Of a stretch of 64,000 nucleotides of DNA, positions 35,212 to 56,392 are shown in pieces (position 1 is the stretch's first letter; every line of letters begins with the position of its first letter). The DNA is taken from the NCBI GenBank assembly GCA_910587235.1, contig CAJUKD010000002.1, forward strand, positions 52,943 to 116,942. The letters are read 5' to 3'. Made by a program: the position numbers and the translations under genes. The notes beneath the pieces are model-generated. The model was not told the origin of the DNA, did no database searches, and was given only the letters and a program-made list of their open reading frames with translations. Source of the stretch: an uncultured Muribaculaceae bacterium (GTDB lineage Bacteria; Bacteroidota; Bacteroidia; Bacteroidales; Muribaculaceae).

Positions 35212-35240
35212 TTCACGTAGGGACGTGCCGCGGCACGTCT
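35212..35240 (+). repeat. palindromic intergenic element, copy a
   Basis: TTCACGTAGGGACGTGCCGCGGCACGTCT. The core GACGTGCCGCGGCACGTC (35222-35239) is a perfect 18-bp palindrome. The 29 nt are identical to 56364-56392. Confidence 0.85.
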
Positions 35241-41091: not shown

Positions 41092-42740
41092 AACACACGA
41101 CGACAGAAACAATACGTAACTCAGGCACGGCATTATTGCTGACAGCCGTATTCACCTACCTCCTGTCCGCAGCCGTCTTCGCATGCGGAGGCCGGATCAA
41201 CGGCGCAATATTCCCCGTTGCCATGGCGGCGGCGCTCGCCTCCGCACCGCTTCTGACAGGCCACACTAAAAAACGCGTCATAGCCATGTCGTCCATGCTG
41301 GCACTCGCGCTTGCGGCGACGGGCATACTTGTCGGCCACCTGCTGCCGGACTACACGAGCGACGGATGCTGGTATCATCAGGAAGGAATAGCCCTGATGC
41401 TCGACGGATGGAATCCGTACCGCGACGGCGCTCCCGAAGGCGGAGCACTGCTCTGGACACTACATTATGCCAAGAGCATGGAGATAATATCGGCGGCCAT
41501 AGCCTCTGCCGTCGGCTCGATAGAAGCAGGCAAAGCTGTAAATTTCATCCTGACCGCCGCCGCGGCATTGCTTGTCTACGATTTCGGACGACGGCACCTC
41601 GCCTCGGCAAAGCGGGCAGCCGCACTCGCGCTTACCGCAACTGCCAATCCTGTGGTAATAGCGCAATTGCCTACATACTATATAGACTATACTCTTTATA
41701 TCTACATCCTGCTGACAATCATCCTGCTTGTCGATGCTGCCGGCAGCCGGCGAACGGCGGCACCGTACCTGCTCGCAGGCGCCGTCACAGTGCTGGCCAT
41801 AGGCACCAAGTTCAACATATTTTTCATGCAGGGCGTCACACTGATTGCCGCCGCAGGATGGTGCGCCGCCACACGCCGCCGGCACGAAGCACGCACAATC
41901 ATCGTCACCGGCGCCTGCGCTCTTGCCGTCGGGCTGCTCGCAGCCTGGCATCCGTACGTCGGGAATTTCATCGGTCACGGCAATCCACTCTACCCTCTTC
42001 TGGGCGAAGGAGCGCAGGACATCATGAGCGAAAACACCCCCGACATCTATACCGGCAACCGTTTCGCCGACTTTGCCATATCCCTTCTCTATCCGGAAAG
42101 GCCGAGTTACGACGGACGTATCAACGGCTTCACCCCCCTGATGGTGCTGTTGCTCGGCATCAGCGCATTGACGGCATGTAAACTCCGCCGCGACAGCGAC
42201 AGCCGCCTGCCTCTGTTCATCATGGCCTGCGCACTGGCAAGTTGCTTTTTCTTCGACCAGTCGTGGTGGGCGCGCTACAACTGCCAGCTGTGGCTTGTGC
42301 CAGTCAGCGCCTATTTCTGCCTTCTGCGCTCCGGCGACCGGGCGCATACCCTTGTATGGTGCCGCCGGCTGACGCTTCTCTGCATCGTCGCAGCCGCCGC
42401 CGTAACAATCAGATACACCCTGCCCGCAAGCATACACCTGAGCATCTGGCAACGCAACATCTACTCGCTGCGGCGCGAAACGCCGGCCAGGATTATCGAC
42501 CTCGACCGACAGACCGCCCGCCACTTCGCCGAACAGGGCATAGACACCGAAAGCATATCCGAAAGCGAAGTCCGGCCGGGGAATATCCTCGTTGCCACAG
42601 GCTATGTGTTCAAAGGCGTATTTCCGATGATGGAAGTCACTCGCGCTGAGTGGGACAGTATGCTGAAGCATTCGGGAGGCCGTCTGCTGGAGCATCAGAA
42701 TCCGCGCCGTGCAGTACTGCCTGACCTTTCACAGCCATAG
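41088..42740 (+). CDS. polytopic membrane protein, possible GT-C-fold (ArnT/PMT-like) glycosyltransferase
   Basis: Start moved to MKHTTTETIRNSG (ATGA overlap with queA). More than 10 predicted TM segments. The first-loop motif DGCWYHQEGIALMLDGWNPY resembles the DE.RYaE..reML.sGdW..P motif of ArnT/PMT enzymes. Confidence 0.45.
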   Translation: MKHTTTETIRNSGTALLLTAVFTYLLSAAVFACGGRINGAIFPVAMAAALASAPLLTGHTKKRVIAMSSMLALALAATGILVGHLLPDYTSDGCWYHQEGIALMLDGWNPYRDGAPEGGALLWTLHYAKSMEIISAAIASAVGSIEAGKAVNFILTAAAALLVYDFGRRHLASAKRAAALALTATANPVVIAQLPTYYIDYTLYIYILLTIILLVDAAGSRRTAAPYLLAGAVTVLAIGTKFNIFFMQGVTLIAAAGWCAATRRRHEARTIIVTGACALAVGLLAAWHPYVGNFIGHGNPLYPLLGEGAQDIMSENTPDIYTGNRFADFAISLLYPERPSYDGRINGFTPLMVLLLGISALTACKLRRDSDSRLPLFIMACALASCFFFDQSWWARYNCQLWLVPVSAYFCLLRSGDRAHTLVWCRRLTLLCIVAAAAVTIRYTLPASIHLSIWQRNIYSLRRETPARIIDLDRQTARHFAEQGIDTESISESEVRPGNILVATGYVFKGVFPMMEVTRAEWDSMLKHSGGRLLEHQNPRRAVLPDLSQP

Positions 42741-43203
42741 ACTCCATAAGTTTCTTTTCGATAAGAGCGACAAAAGCGGCCTTTTTCGCCTCACGAGCGG
42801 CACGCCGGCGGTCGGCGTCGGTAACGATAAGATAGTTTTCATCGATAGGCTCGGCATCCTTGCGGCGGCGATAGCCGTTCTGAAGGCGGCGCGAAGTCAG
42901 TATTCCCTTTTTGACATACATCTCCTTATCGAAAAATCCGCACTCTACGAGCTTATCCATATCACTTTCAATTTCCGCGGGATAGCGCCGTGTCATCTCC
43001 TCCAGATCGTAGTACAGAGCGCTGTCGCACCTGACAAAATAAGTCCTTCTGCCCCGTATCAGGGACATAATTGCAAGATAGGTGACAACAGCCTCCATAC
43101 GGCCGGCGGTACGCAGCTTCCCTACTTCGGGAGTGTCGAAAAAACCGGAGTTGACAGGCAGAGCGAACATACGTGCTTTCTTTATTCTTTTCATAGCTGA
43201 CAA
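42637..43203 (-). CDS. DUF4373-like protein (phage replisome-organiser-like N-domain family, from memory)
   Basis: MFALPVNSGFFDTPEVGKLRTAGRMEAVVTYLAIMSLI... The last 35 codons overlap the convergent membrane-protein gene. Confidence 0.5.
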   Translation of the reverse strand: MSAMKRIKKARMFALPVNSGFFDTPEVGKLRTAGRMEAVVTYLAIMSLIRGRRTYFVRCDSALYYDLEEMTRRYPAEIESDMDKLVECGFFDKEMYVKKGILTSRRLQNGYRRRKDAEPIDENYLIVTDADRRRAAREAKKAAFVALIEKKLMESMAVKGQAVLHGADSDAPADGLPNASAYCPTQRE

Positions 43204-43307
43204 GATTAGGAATTAATGAATCAAGTACTGCAAAGATAATATGCGGAATCTACCGTCCGACAGAAAAACAACACCCCGGCATCAATTAACATATTTTCAT
43301 CATTCCA

Positions 43308-43337
43308 CAAAAATATCGAAAACATCTGTTTTCCAAA
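43308..43337 (-). promoter_or_regulatory. candidate promoter of the DUF4373-like gene
   Basis: Minus strand has TATTTTTG (43308-43315) with TTTG about 19 nt upstream. A second -7 box, TATCTTTG, is at 43231-43238. Confidence 0.4.
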
Positions 43338-43364
43338 ACATTTCGGCCACAAACCAATAAAACG

Positions 43365-43393
43365 CAAAAAGGAGCCGTCTTCGGCTCCTTTTT
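43365..43393. terminator. intrinsic terminator closing the ncRNA locus
   Basis: GGAGCCG-TCTT-CGGCTCC flanked by an A-run and a T-run. On the minus strand it is a hairpin followed by TTTTTG. Confidence 0.7.
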
Positions 43394-43658
43394 GTATGGG
43401 CCACACCAAAGGATGCGATGAAACTCCGAATAGACAGGATTTGAGTGCTCGCCGTCCTTTGTAATCCGCCTGGCATTAAAGCACCTCTTGCGAGGTCGGG
43501 GCCCGCCATCGGGCGACTAAGCTTGTCTCGGGATTTCAGTTTGATTTGAAGAGTTTCCCAATCTACTTTGATGTGGTATGTCTTTATGCGGGATGTGCAG
43601 CGCCGACGTGCCTCGGCACGTCCCTACTACCCTGCTGCGGCTCTCTTGCCTTTGTTTT
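43394..43658 (-). ncRNA. stand-alone structured non-coding RNA, 6S (SsrS)-like candidate; structured core about 43401-43576
   Basis: It has its own consensus promoter and its own terminator, and I found no convincing ORF in between. The core ends pair over 11 bp (CCACAUCAAAG with CUUUGGUGUGG) and then 8 bp (GAAACUCU with GGAGUUUC). They enclose A/U-rich unpaired strands and internal GC hairpins. Confidence 0.45.
43605..43627 (-). repeat. palindromic intergenic element, copy c
   Basis: Minus strand reads GTAGGGACGTGCCGAGGCACGTC, with 22 of 23 positions identical to copies a and b. It lies in the 5' leader of the ncRNA locus. Confidence 0.8.
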
Positions 43659-43665
43659 TATAACA

Positions 43666-43697
43666 CAAATTTAAGAGTTATAGTTCGTATATCCAAA
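43666..43697 (-). promoter_or_regulatory. promoter of the ncRNA locus (TTTG-N20-TAAATTTG)
   Basis: Plus strand has CAAATTTA at 43666-43673 and CAAA at 43694-43697. Both elements and the spacing fit the Bacteroides consensus. Confidence 0.55.
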
Positions 43698-43714
43698 TAT
43701 CGGGATGATTTTTT

Positions 43715-43999
43715 TCAGAAATGAAGAAACAAGGGTGTGCCTGCGCTGTGCCACAGCCCGCGTGCGGTGACTTCTCCGGAATCGGGAGGGGCTGTAAGAA
43801 GCGAAGCCCACGGCGCGGCGGATGAATCGAGTACGTAGAGCGGACCGCTGACGAAGACAGTGGAATGCGTTTCGCCTGTGAAAGGAGTGATGCGGACGAT
43901 GCCGTCCGACGCTATTTCTACCACGCTCATGGAATACTCCATGCCGCAATGAAATATTTTGTGCGCAAGATATCGGTCAGAGCCGGGATGTATTATCAT
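43715..43999 (-). CDS. hypothetical protein (94 aa), translationally coupled to the upstream gene
   Basis: ATGA overlap with the stop of the DUF4296-like gene. No recognisable motifs. Confidence 0.4.
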   Translation of the reverse strand: MIIHPGSDRYLAHKIFHCGMEYSMSVVEIASDGIVRITPFTGETHSTVFVSGPLYVLDSSAAPWASLLTAPPDSGEVTARGLWHSAGTPLFLHF

Positions 44000-45867: not shown

Positions 45868-48800
45868 TCAGTCGCGGCTGATGTCGACACAGACAGCAAG
45901 GCCGTCGATGTCGAGCTGCTCGACTGTTGGCGAAGCGTCGGCGACGGGTGCCACGGCTATGGCGCGGGCAAGCACCTGTGTGGCAATATAATCGCCGAAG
46001 GATTCAACGGCCGCTTCGACTTCTTTTCCGGGTGCGAATACAAGAGTCACTGTATCAGTTATCTCGTAGCCGCGATCCTTACGGATATTCTGCACACGGT
46101 TGATGATTTCGCGGGCAAGACCTTCGCGACGCAGGGCGTCGGTCAGTTCTATGTCGAGGGCTACGGTAAGGCTGCCTTCGTTTGCCACGAGCCAGCCGGG
46201 GATATCCTCGGAGATGATTTTGACATCGGCTATATCGACATGCACGTCATTGCCGTCGATTGCTATATCTATTCCGCCGTCGCGTTCAAGGCGTGCGATA
46301 TCTTCTTTGGCAAGCCCCTTTATGAGTGCGGCCGCCTGTTTCATCGACTTGCCGAATTTCGGGCCGAGTTTCTTGAAATCGGGTTCGACGCGTTTGACGA
46401 ACACTTCATTGTCGCCGCTGACGATCTCGAGGCGCTTGACGTTGACTTCGGCTGTCACGATGTCGCTTACCGATTCAAATACACGGCGCTGCGAGTCGTC
46501 GGAAGCGGGCACGAGCATCTTTGCCAGTGGCTGGCGTACTTTCATCTTTGCCTTGTGGCGCAACGAGAGCACAAGCGATGTGAGCTGCTGAGCGGTGGCC
46601 ATCCGGAATTCGAGATCGCTGTCGATCGCCGATGCGTCGACGTCCGGGAAATCGGCCAGATGGACAGATGCGGCCGCTCCTGGACATCCGTCGGTAAGAT
46701 CGCGGTAGAGGCGGTCGCTGTAGAAAGGCGCTACGGGAGCTATAAGTTTCGACAGCGTCAGCAGGCAGGTGTACAGAGTCTGGTATGCAGCCACTTTGTT
46801 ACGGTCGCATCCGCGGCTCCAGAAACGCTTGCGGTTGAGGCGCACATACCAGTTGGAGAGGTTGTCGCAGACAAAGTCGTTGATAGCGCGGGCGGCACGG
46901 GTCGGCTCGTAGTCTTCGAGGGCTTCGGTGACAGTTCCGACGAGGGTGTTGAGCAGAGAGAGTATCCAGCGGTCGGTTTCGGGACGTTCGGCCAGCGGCA
47001 CCTGCTCCATGTCGGTGGTGAAGCCGTCGACATTGGCATACATTGCAAAGAAGTTGTAGGTGTTGGAGAGCGTCGAGAAGAACTTGCGCGATACTTCAGC
47101 CACACCGTCGGAATCATATTTCAGGTTGTCCCACGGCGATGAATTGGCCACCATGTACCAGCGCATGGGATCGGAACCGAATTTCTCTATGGTTTCGAAA
47201 GGATTGACGGCATTGCCGAGGCGCTTCGACATCTTGTTGCCGTTCTTATCGAGCACAAGACCGTTTGAAATCACAGCCTTATAAGCATTGGAGTCAAATA
47301 CCATCGAGCCTATGGCGTGGAGTGTGAAGAACCATCCGCGAGTCTGGTCGACACCTTCGGCGATGAAGTCGGCGGGGAAAAGCTCTCCGGCGTCGAATGC
47401 GTCCTTGTTCTCGAACGGATAGTGGATCTGGGCGTATGGCATCGAGCCTGAGTCGAACCATACGTCGATAAGGTCGAGTTCGCGGCGCATAGGCTCTCCG
47501 GAAGGAGAAACGAGCACTATATCGTCGACATAGGGACGATGGAGATCGATCAGTTCATAGTTTGCCTTCGAATAGTCGCCGGGCACGAATCCTTTTTCTT
47601 TCAGCGGATTCGAGGCCATCACGCCGGCTGCCACGGCTTTTTCGATTTCGTCGTAAAGCATTTCGACGGATTCGATGCAGATTTCCTCCGCTCCGTTTTC
47701 GGTGCGCCATATAGGCAGGGGAGTACCCCAGTAACGGCTGCGCGAAAGGTTCCAGTCCTGAAGATTCTCAAGCCACTTTCCGAAGCGTCCGGTTCCGGTC
47801 GATGCGGGTTTCCACTTGATGGTGTCGTTCAGCTCCATCATGCGGTCGCGCACCGATGTAGTGCGGATGAACCAGCTGTCGAGCGGATAATATACGATAG
47901 GCGCATCCGTACGCCAGCAATGGGGATAGTTGTGGACGTGCTTTTCGATGCGGAACACTTTGCCTTCTTTTTTCAGCTCCATGCAGATTTCGACATCAAG
48001 AGTTTCGTCGGTGTCGGTCTTTGCGGGATCATAGGCGTTCTTCACATATTTTCCTGCCCAGCGGGAATACTCGGCCACGTCGACGCGTTCGGCCACAAAA
48101 GCAGGGTCGAGATCCTCTATACGGAAGAAGCGTCCGGTGAAATCGACCATGGGACGGATATTGCCGTCGCGGTCGGTCATGTGGAGCGGCGGAATGTCGT
48201 TGAGCTTCGACACACGCTGGTCGTCGGCACCGAAAGTGCCGGCTATATGTACTATGCCCGTGCCGTCCTCGGTGCTTACATAGTCGCCGGGGATGACGCG
48301 GAAAGCGCCTTCTCCGGGATTGACCCAAGGCAGGAGCTGACGATAGTGGAGGCCGACGAGTTCTGTGCCGCTCACGGTGTCGACCACCTGATAGGGCACG
48401 GTTTTGTCGCCGGGTTTATAGTCCTCAAGCGCAAGTCCTTCCGCCTTCGCTCCGAAAACGGACGAGAGAAGAGCTTCGGCCACTACGACTGTTACGGGCG
48501 AGCCGTTGTAAGGGTTGTATGTCCGCACGATGGCATAGCGTATCGACGGTCCTACGCAAAGAGCCGTGTTCGATGGGAGTGTCCAGGGTGTGGTTGTCCA
48601 TGCAAGGAAACATGGAGTGCCCCATCCTTTCATGCTTTCGAGCGGATCGAGAGCCTCGAACTGCGCGATGCAGGTGGTGTCCTTGACGTCGCGGTAACAT
48701 CCCGGCTGGTTCAGTTCGTGTGAACTCAGACCGGTGCCGGCCATAGGAGAGTAAGGCTGGATGGTGTAGCCCTTGTAAAGGAAGCCTTTTTTATAAAGTT

Positions 48801-49296
48801 GTGCGAGCAGCCACCACACGGATTCGATGTAGCGGTTGTCGTATGTGATGTAAGGATCGTTCATGTCCACCCAGTAGCCCATGGAGTTGGTGAGCGTTTC
48901 CCACTCGCGGGTGAATTTCATTACCTCGCGGCGGCAGGCGGCATTGTATTCGTCGACAGATATTTTCTTGCCTATGTCCTCCTTTGTGATTCCCAGCGAA
49001 CGTTCCACGCCAAGTTCAACGGGCAGTCCGTGTGTATCCCATCCGGCCTTTCGCTTCACATGGAATCCTTTCATGGTCTTGTAGCGGCAGAAAATGTCCT
49101 TAATTGTCCGTGCCATCACATGATGGATGCCGGGCATGCCGTTTGCGGAAGGAGGGCCTTCGTAGAACACAAAAGACGGGCAGCCTTCGCGGAGTTTCAT
49201 GCTTTGCTCGAACAGACGGCTGCCGTTCCAGTCATTAAGCATCTCGCGATTTATTTCCGAGAGATTGAATCCGGAGTATTCCTTGAACTTTTTCAT
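45868..49296 (-). CDS. ileS: isoleucine--tRNA ligase
   Basis: Start moved to MKKFKEYSGFNLSE (ATG at 49296). HIGH motif as PSANGMPGIHH and KMSKS as NKMSKRLGN. 1142 aa. Confidence 0.95.
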   Translation of the reverse strand: MKKFKEYSGFNLSEINREMLNDWNGSRLFEQSMKLREGCPSFVFYEGPPSANGMPGIHHVMARTIKDIFCRYKTMKGFHVKRKAGWDTHGLPVELGVERSLGITKEDIGKKISVDEYNAACRREVMKFTREWETLTNSMGYWVDMNDPYITYDNRYIESVWWLLAQLYKKGFLYKGYTIQPYSPMAGTGLSSHELNQPGCYRDVKDTTCIAQFEALDPLESMKGWGTPCFLAWTTTPWTLPSNTALCVGPSIRYAIVRTYNPYNGSPVTVVVAEALLSSVFGAKAEGLALEDYKPGDKTVPYQVVDTVSGTELVGLHYRQLLPWVNPGEGAFRVIPGDYVSTEDGTGIVHIAGTFGADDQRVSKLNDIPPLHMTDRDGNIRPMVDFTGRFFRIEDLDPAFVAERVDVAEYSRWAGKYVKNAYDPAKTDTDETLDVEICMELKKEGKVFRIEKHVHNYPHCWRTDAPIVYYPLDSWFIRTTSVRDRMMELNDTIKWKPASTGTGRFGKWLENLQDWNLSRSRYWGTPLPIWRTENGAEEICIESVEMLYDEIEKAVAAGVMASNPLKEKGFVPGDYSKANYELIDLHRPYVDDIVLVSPSGEPMRRELDLIDVWFDSGSMPYAQIHYPFENKDAFDAGELFPADFIAEGVDQTRGWFFTLHAIGSMVFDSNAYKAVISNGLVLDKNGNKMSKRLGNAVNPFETIEKFGSDPMRWYMVANSSPWDNLKYDSDGVAEVSRKFFSTLSNTYNFFAMYANVDGFTTDMEQVPLAERPETDRWILSLLNTLVGTVTEALEDYEPTRAARAINDFVCDNLSNWYVRLNRKRFWSRGCDRNKVAAYQTLYTCLLTLSKLIAPVAPFYSDRLYRDLTDGCPGAAASVHLADFPDVDASAIDSDLEFRMATAQQLTSLVLSLRHKAKMKVRQPLAKMLVPASDDSQRRVFESVSDIVTAEVNVKRLEIVSGDNEVFVKRVEPDFKKLGPKFGKSMKQAAALIKGLAKEDIARLERDGGIDIAIDGNDVHVDIADVKIISEDIPGWLVANEGSLTVALDIELTDALRREGLAREIINRVQNIRKDRGYEITDTVTLVFAPGKEVEAAVESFGDYIATQVLARAIAVAPVADASPTVEQLDIDGLAVCVDISRD

Positions 49297-49411
49297 TTGC
49301 GTGGATGTGGAATATAAATATAAGGAGGAAAAATTCAAAAAAGGGTGTGTAGCAACAGACGCGTACACACCCTTCTTTATAAGTGCTGAAAGAGCTTCGT
49401 TCGCGCGCTGA

Positions 49412-49948
49412 TTATTCGGCGGCGGGAGCTTCTGTTTCGGCGGGTTCGGCTGCAGCTTCAGCCTCGGCTTCAGCCTTGGCGGCTGCAAGTTCTGCCTTTT
49501 TCTTAGCTACAGCTTCAGCCTTGGCCTTGTTGCGGGCTTGTTCGGCTTCGAGGCGTTCGCGGTCAGCAGCCAGACGGCTGTCGGCCATAGCGGACTTGAC
49601 AGCTGCGGTGCGGGCAGTCTTCTTTGCTTTCCAGTCATCGAAGCGGCGCTGAGCCTCAGCTTCGTCGAAAGCGCCTTTTTTCACACCTCCGAGGAGGTGC
49701 TTCATCAGCAGAACGCCTTCGTTGGAAAGGATTGTGCGTACTGTGTCGGTGGGTTCAGCGCCGACGGTCAGCCAATACAAAGCCCGTTCGAAATTAAGAG
49801 TGATTGTAGCAGGATTAGTGTTCGGATTATAAGAACCTATCCTTTCAATAAATCTACCATCTCGTGGTGCCCTGCTATCGGCGATGACAATGGGATAGAA
49901 CGCATAGTGCTTGCGACCATGACGTTGTAATCTGATTTTTGTTGCCAT
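49412..49948 (-). CDS. rpsP: 30S ribosomal protein S16 with an Ala/Glu/Lys-rich C-terminal extension
   Basis: [42 protein letters not shown]. Confidence 0.95.
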
Positions 49949-56363: not shown

Positions 56364-56392
56364 TTCACGTAGGGACGTGCCGCGGCACGTCT
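56364..56392 (+). repeat. palindromic intergenic element, copy b
   Basis: 29 nt identical to 35212-35240. The palindrome core is at 56374-56391. Confidence 0.85.

Follow-up and report, generated by a model that had tools for sequence, protein, structure and literature searches.

Structured non-coding RNAs of the Bacteroidales-1 type were first described in the order Bacteroidales by a comparative screen (Weinberg et al. 2010, PMC2864571), and Wehner et al. 2014, going by its citation as reference 44 of PMC7366714, later predicted that the motif is a 6S RNA. The 6S RNA of Bacteroides thetaiotaomicron has since been identified experimentally, with two classes of pRNAs detected (Ryan et al. 2020, PMC7366714), and the homologue of Segatella copri accumulates in stationary phase on Northern blots (bioRxiv 10.1101/2024.04.05.588293). 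A literature search found no report of direct RNA polymerase binding for a Bacteroidales 6S RNA, the evidence given being pRNA detection and growth-phase accumulation, and no paper on 6S RNA in Muribaculaceae. The canonical 6S RNAs (SsrS, RF00013) of Escherichia coli and Bacillus subtilis are encoded by independent, highly conserved, single-copy genes and form a rod-shaped core of about 185 nt with a closing stem, a large central bubble and a distal stem. The E. coli 6S precursor is trimmed. In B. subtilis, the precursors of both 6S-1 and 6S-2 are processed, with trimming of the 5' end (PMC10578484). A further 6S-type RNA, 6S-Flavo (RF01685), was described in another order of the Bacteroidota by the same comparative screen as Bacteroidales-1 (PMC2864571).

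The window analysed here is a 64-kb stretch of DNA (64,000 nucleotides) from an uncultured Muribaculaceae bacterium. An earlier note, made from the sequence alone, had pointed to a stand-alone RNA locus in this window that resembled 6S RNA, and had proposed an Infernal comparison with the 6S and Bacteroidales models of Rfam. That comparison bore out the guess. The Rfam scan of the whole window at gathering thresholds returned a single match, to RF01693 (Bacteroidales-1, "6S-Bacteroidales RNA suggested"), which scored 114 bits (gathering score 60; E = 4e-18), and the model is covered end to end (positions 1 to 179 of 179). In a permissive scan of positions 43200 to 43800, the other models scored at E = 0.35 or worse and mostly recognised the terminator hairpin. 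RF01693 occurs once in the 2.55-Mb genome, and neither RF00013 (classical 6S) nor RF01685 has a match in the whole genome at E <= 1. Thus, no other 6S candidate is found in this genome, and the RNA is filed under RF01693 rather than under either of the other two models. The core listed in Table 1 is very probably the ssrS-equivalent gene of this bacterium, encoding the Bacteroidales form of 6S RNA (Rfam Bacteroidales-1). The note had let its reading depend on an Rfam match and on covariation of the closing helices; the match to RF01693 was obtained, and the closing helix P1 covaries, as described below.

Table 1. Features of the 6S RNA locus, with positions given in the window.
Feature	Position	Strand	Basis or remark
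-33 element TTTG, Bacteroidota-type promoter	43694-43697	-	Read in the sequence; conserved in the alignment of relatives
-7 element TAAATTTG (TAnnTTTG)	43666-43673	-	TA..TTTG positions invariant in 22 loci
5' leader of the primary transcript, ~83 nt	43579-43662	-	Span from the predicted start to the core
Leader hairpin GGC-AAGAGA-GCC, AGAG loop	43639-43650	-	Conserved in Muribaculaceae-type leaders
REP-like palindrome GTAGGGACGTGCC-NN-GGCACGTC, 23 nt	43605-43627	.	Inserted in the 6S leader
6S RNA core	43393-43578	-	RF01693 match, single copy
Closing helix P1, 5' strand CCACAUCAAAG	43566-43576	-	Pairs with 43401-43411, 11 bp
Closing helix P1, 3' strand CUUUGGUGUGG	43401-43411	-	Pairs with 43566-43576
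Helix P2, GAAACUCU with GGAGUUUC, 8 bp	43550-43557 with 43420-43427	-	MFE fold
Candidate central bubble, 5' strand UCAAAUCAAACUGAAAUCCCGAGACAA, including invariant CCGAGA	43523-43549	-	Conserved block, no supported partner
Candidate central bubble, 3' strand ACUCAAAUCCUGUCUAUUC, nearly invariant	43428-43446	-	Conserved block, no supported partner
Distal domain, long-range helices GCU/AGC, AGUCGCCC/GGACGGCG, UG/CA and CCCC/GCGG	43447-43522	-	Rfam model alignment
Distal domain, invariant AUGGCGGGCC and GGAUUACAAAGG blocks and variable tip with hairpin ACCUC-GCAA-GAGGU	within 43447-43522	-	
Intrinsic terminator GGAGCCG-AAGA-CGGCUCC with U run	43365-43394	-	Terminator scan, 13-pair stem

The family is already known, is curated in Rfam and has been validated in B. 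thetaiotaomicron and S. copri, and the gene described here is an ordinary member of it. What is gained is a correct annotation of a housekeeping 6S RNA gene in Muribaculaceae, an abundant gut family; the gains are modest and consist of the mapped positions of promoter, leader, core and terminator together with a corrected secondary structure. With other Bacteroidales-1 loci, the gene shares the full-length model match, its own -33/-7 promoter, an intrinsic terminator, a single copy per genome, the covarying distal helices and closing stem, and the invariant blocks GGGAAACUC, CCGAGA, AUGGCGGGCC, GGAUUACAAAGG, CUCAAAUCCUGU and CGGAGUUUCAUC. It differs from the Bacteroides and Prevotella genes in its closing stem, which is of the Muribaculaceae type CCACAUCAAAG whereas theirs is of the GCCGCAUYGG type. 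Compared with canonical 6S RNA, a core of about 185 nt with a closing and a distal stem, probably also the central bubble, and the independent, conserved, single-copy gene are shared, but similarity is detectable neither in sequence nor with the model, and the distal domain is branched and carries invariant single-stranded blocks. The 6S-Flavo RNA has a different sequence and a shorter model (108 positions).

The silence of RF00013 at this locus, together with the lack in the literature of a direct polymerase-binding report, would also fit a structured small RNA that does not sequester polymerase and is like 6S RNA in architecture only. This is very unlikely, given that the B. thetaiotaomicron homologue was found together with pRNAs, the hallmark of a working 6S RNA (PMC7366714), that stationary-phase accumulation is known from the homologue in S. 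copri (10.1101/2024.04.05.588293), and that no other 6S-like RNA was found in the genome. Binding to the holoenzyme through the promoter-like bubble and pRNA-driven release at outgrowth should be expected here by homology. By homology with the B. thetaiotaomicron RNA, the central bubble would mimic an open promoter, and the RNA would fill the active-site cleft of the holoenzyme that RNA polymerase forms with its primary sigma factor. Unlike in the canonical systems, this factor would be the one of the Bacteroidota, with its specificity for -33/-7 promoters. Occupation of the holoenzyme would dampen transcription as growth slows; upon nutrient upshift, the polymerase would copy a short pRNA from a strand of the bubble, and the 6S RNA would be released.

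The earlier note had described a full promoter and a strong terminator bracketing some 270 to 290 nt, and both elements are indeed present, with about 295 nt between them. The two promoter boxes are separated by a spacer of 20 nt. The window contains 7 matches to TTTG-N19-21-TAnnTTTG, against 0.31 expected from shuffles, and the full promoter is therefore not a chance match. No -7 box other than TAAATTTG lies within 160 nt upstream of the core, and the -33 and -7 boxes are kept in 22 of 22 flanked loci of relatives. Transcription is predicted to start about 4 to 7 nt downstream of the -7 element, roughly at 43659 to 43662, which would give a primary transcript of about 295 nt. At the other end, GGAGCCG-AAGA-CGGCUCC is followed by UUUUU (43388 to 43366, minus strand). 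Inspection of the alignment showed that the relatives carry, at the position of the terminator, a GC-rich hairpin of different sequence and then a T-rich stretch. From the predicted start to the terminator, the MFE fold has a z-score of -4.4 against shuffles. The short interval between the stop of the upstream 94-aa ORF (43715) and the 6S promoter (window 43700 to 43715) holds no terminator, and transcripts running on from the dksA/traR-lspA-DUF4296 genes upstream could contribute to the pool of 6S precursor.

The downstream gene (42637 to 43203, minus strand), recognised as DUF4373-like in the note, belongs to Pfam Lin1244_N (PF14297) and has five further paralogues in the genome with 29 to 44% identity. 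Since it lies on the same strand, with the RNA 160 to 190 nt upstream of it, the RNA might be taken for its cis-acting leader or attenuator. However, the 13-pair terminator with its U run stands between the two, a TATCTTTG -7 box of its own precedes the gene (43238 to 43231), and the gene has no counterpart at E <= 1e-10 in 25 genomes of the same genus, yet the RNA is kept in 22 of the 24 that were searched. A leader of this gene, already dismissed in the note, is thus extremely unlikely, and we rejected this reading. The distribution of the Lin1244_N gene points to a family that is specific to the strain and associated with mobile elements. On the upstream side lie, in order, genes for a zf-dskA_traR protein, lspA and a DUF4296 protein (Pfam) and the 94-aa ORF, and, beyond, a 1206-aa ORF at 45868 to 49488. 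The suggestion of looking for homologues downstream of lspA-DUF4296 did not hold, because synteny there is not conserved: in the relatives, the DUF4296 gene is on other contigs than the 6S gene or, in one genome (G005), 24 kb away. As its neighbours vary among relatives, the 6S RNA stands on its own rather than serving as a leader, and promoter, RNA and terminator move together as a self-contained unit.

A mechanical list of open reading frames contains ORFs of 69 and 62 aa that overlap the RNA span, neither of which has a Pfam match. A small protein could be encoded by the 69-aa ORF (43300 to 43509), the only ATG-initiated frame, which begins at the invariant ATG of ATGGCGGGCC. Against this, 9 of 22 relatives have a stop in this frame after 7 to 13 codons, the frame that covers the conserved 3' block differs between genomes, all three being used, and the 69-aa ORF runs through the terminator. 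The likelihood of a coding function is close to nil, and this candidate was discarded on account of the early stops and the missing Pfam match. No ORF is conserved among the relatives, in agreement with the absence of a convincing reading frame claimed before; a conserved small ORF was one of the findings that the note had named as counting against its reading. The 6S RNA gene is hence independent, single-copy and non-coding, in line with the 6S class.

The secondary structure was evaluated by counting pairs in two alignments, one of 23 relatives (22 of the same genus) and one of 107 Bacteroidales sequences. The 36 pairs considered were those of the two closing helices proposed in the note and of the distal helices of the Rfam model. 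Among the 23 relatives, 92% of cells were paired, compared with 37 to 48% in slid controls, and changes on both sides were observed at 16 of the 36 pairs, a value reached in 0 of 500 shuffles. For the 107 Bacteroidales sequences, 87% of cells were paired (39 to 50% in slid controls) and both-side changes affected 25 of 36 pairs in 440 cells, again reached in 0 of 500 shuffles. Both the 11-bp closing helix and the following 8-bp helix drawn by eye are present and appear in the MFE fold, and the first of them, P1, also covaries, with both-side changes at 7 of 11 pairs in the 23 relatives and at 9 of 10 pairs in the 107 Bacteroidales sequences. P2 (GAAACUC/GAGUUUC) is almost invariant, with 84 to 95% of cells paired, except for its terminal U-G pair, which is not conserved; because of this near-invariance, the comparison speaks neither for nor against P2. 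The distal long-range helices show both-side changes at 8 of 13 pairs in the relatives and at 11 of 13 in the larger alignment; in the Rfam model alignment, the window's own 8-bp distal helix has 2 mismatches. The core is probably a rod with a closing stem, a central bubble and a distal stem, an architecture typical of 6S RNA. When the core alone is folded, the MFE is only moderately better than that of shuffles (z = -2.5).

Two details of the structure had to be corrected. The region between P1 and P2 had been drawn as an 8x8 internal loop, where five to six further, almost invariant pairs can form. The potential pairs are G16-C167, A17-U166, U18-A165, G20-C162 and G21-U161, which are kept as pairs in 85 to 95% and never covary. 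The second correction concerns the distal hairpin GCCCG-AUGG-CGGGC, for which no pair has both-side changes and 74% of cells are paired. It is not supported because it competes with the covarying long-range helix P4, whose nucleotides it uses along with those of the invariant AUGGCGGGCC block, and it was rejected. The junction between P1 and P2 (RNA positions 14 to 21 and 160 to 167; window 43565 to 43558 and 43419 to 43412) is near-invariant throughout the 107 Bacteroidales sequences and would allow pairing of GAU with AUC and of GG with UC. Such a conserved, possibly non-canonical junction could be a candidate contact site for a protein, judging from the alignment. A change from U19·G163 to C·A in this region was considered as covariation (UA 41, CA 29, UG 23), but its mutual information was not outstanding and no claim is made.

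The two A/U-rich strands that link P2 to the distal domain each contain CAAAUC, as had been noticed before, and would form the central bubble. Both are conserved and neither covaries with a partner, which is consistent with a bubble; parts of them are paired in the MFE fold, and their near-invariance means that the comparison cannot prove a paired or an unpaired state. The 5' strand is the presumed pRNA template region, by analogy with B. thetaiotaomicron (PMC7366714).

We searched for the RNA in related genomes using the RF01693 model. Matches were obtained in 22 of 24 genomes of the same genus and in one genome of another family, while in a control search of 14 reference genomes the model matched B. 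thetaiotaomicron only. No RF01693 match was seen in two genomes of the same genus, G002 (92% complete) and G010 (84% complete), which may reflect an assembly gap or stricter filters; a true loss is unlikely. A wider search, with a pattern built from two invariant blocks, found matches in Bacteroides, Prevotella/Segatella, Parabacteroides, Dysgonomonas, Proteiniphilum, Porphyromonas, Tannerella, Paludibacteraceae and many Muribaculaceae. The host of the present gene, as a member of the Muribaculaceae, thus falls within the Bacteroidales, the order in which RF01693 occurs. Complete cores of the Bacteroidales type were also seen on three MAG contigs labelled Clostridiales, Staphylococcus and Oscillospiraceae (L039, L052 and L066, respectively). 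L039 and L052 carry Muribaculaceae-type closing stems, and all three contigs or bins are probably mis-binned or mislabelled. Two further loci labelled Sphingobacteriales (L028) and Thermoleophilia (L031) matched the pattern and lack the P2 boxes; they may be chance matches.

The least routine feature of the locus is its 5' leader, compared here with those of Muribaculaceae-type loci, which are defined by the closing stem CCACAUCAAAG. The present gene has 87 nt between -7 box and core. In Muribaculaceae-type loci this distance ranges from 15 to 136 nt and is in most cases at least 40 nt, whereas in other Bacteroidales families it is mostly about 15 to 35 nt, with longer gaps in some loci. Because of this short distance, the primary transcript of most Bacteroidales begins near the closing stem. 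In Muribaculaceae-type leaders, the promoter is directly followed by a conserved block, GTTATAAAAnCAAAG, and then by a small hairpin with an AGAG loop. Of 48 Muribaculaceae-type leaders, 31 have an AGAG-loop hairpin with a stem of at least 3 bp about 16 to 35 nt downstream of the -7 box, compared with 2.5% of shuffled leaders. The AGAG loop is kept in 26 of the 28 distinct hairpin sequences while the stems differ widely (for instance AGCC/GGCU, GCCGGA/UCCGGC, GGCAC/GUGCC, AACGA/UCGUU and GAUGAC/GUCAUC) and covary, with 3 to 5 pair types per position. When pairs were counted on loop-centred segments, the inner three positions paired with their own 3' halves in 28 of 28 sequences, against a permuted mean of about 15 of 28, but pairing at these three positions was a condition for choosing the hairpins; the fourth position, which was not part of that condition, pairs in 19 of 28 (12.4 when permuted). 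The leader block is found nowhere else in the genome and is therefore specific to the 6S locus rather than a general feature of promoters. The spacer from the hairpin to the core varies freely in length and sequence, and the leader is absent altogether in some genomes of the same genus (G012) and in the one of another family (G025).

The present leader differs from those of other Bacteroidales-1 loci in combining the Muribaculaceae-type hairpin with a genome-specific insertion in the spacer behind it, a REP-like palindrome that is absent from the 6S leaders of the relatives. The palindrome is repeated elsewhere, with 34 copies in the 2.55-Mb genome compared with 0 for the reversed control; three of them are in the window, at 43605 to 43627, 35212 to 35240 and 56364 to 56392.

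By analogy with E. coli and B. subtilis, the leader is most likely part of a precursor that is trimmed to a mature RNA of about 180 to 190 nt. The mature RNA might instead keep the leader, giving an extended Muribaculaceae 6S RNA of about 290 nt in which the AGAG-loop hairpin would serve as an additional functional domain. The covarying stems and the restriction of the hairpin to the 6S locus would suit such a domain, and there is no second promoter nearer to the core. On the other hand, a spacer free to vary, a -7-to-core distance ranging so widely, a tolerated REP-like insertion and the existence of genomes without any leader speak against such a domain, and 6S precursors are trimmed in the species studied (B. 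subtilis, PMC10578484), so that an extended mature RNA seems unlikely. Under the trimming reading, we tentatively propose that the Muribaculaceae 6S precursor carries a lineage-specific leader hairpin, with an invariant AGAG loop and covarying stems, that acts as a biogenesis signal setting the level of mature 6S RNA; this is possible rather than probable. Such a signal would be either a recognition site for a nuclease or another protein, or a stabiliser of the 5' end. If true, it would add a control step that is undescribed for the 6S RNA of Bacteroides and Prevotella. As the family itself is known and curated, the hairpin is the only element of the locus that is possibly new, and the long leader with its conserved hairpin offers a concrete target for studies of 6S maturation in Bacteroidota.

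Long leaders were also seen outside the Muribaculaceae. In S. copri (L097 and L137), a gap of 78 nt separates the -7 box from the 6S core and contains a GC-rich hairpin, GCACC...GGTGC, in place of the AGAG hairpin. From this long gap with a different hairpin, long 6S leaders seem to have arisen more than once in the Bacteroidales.
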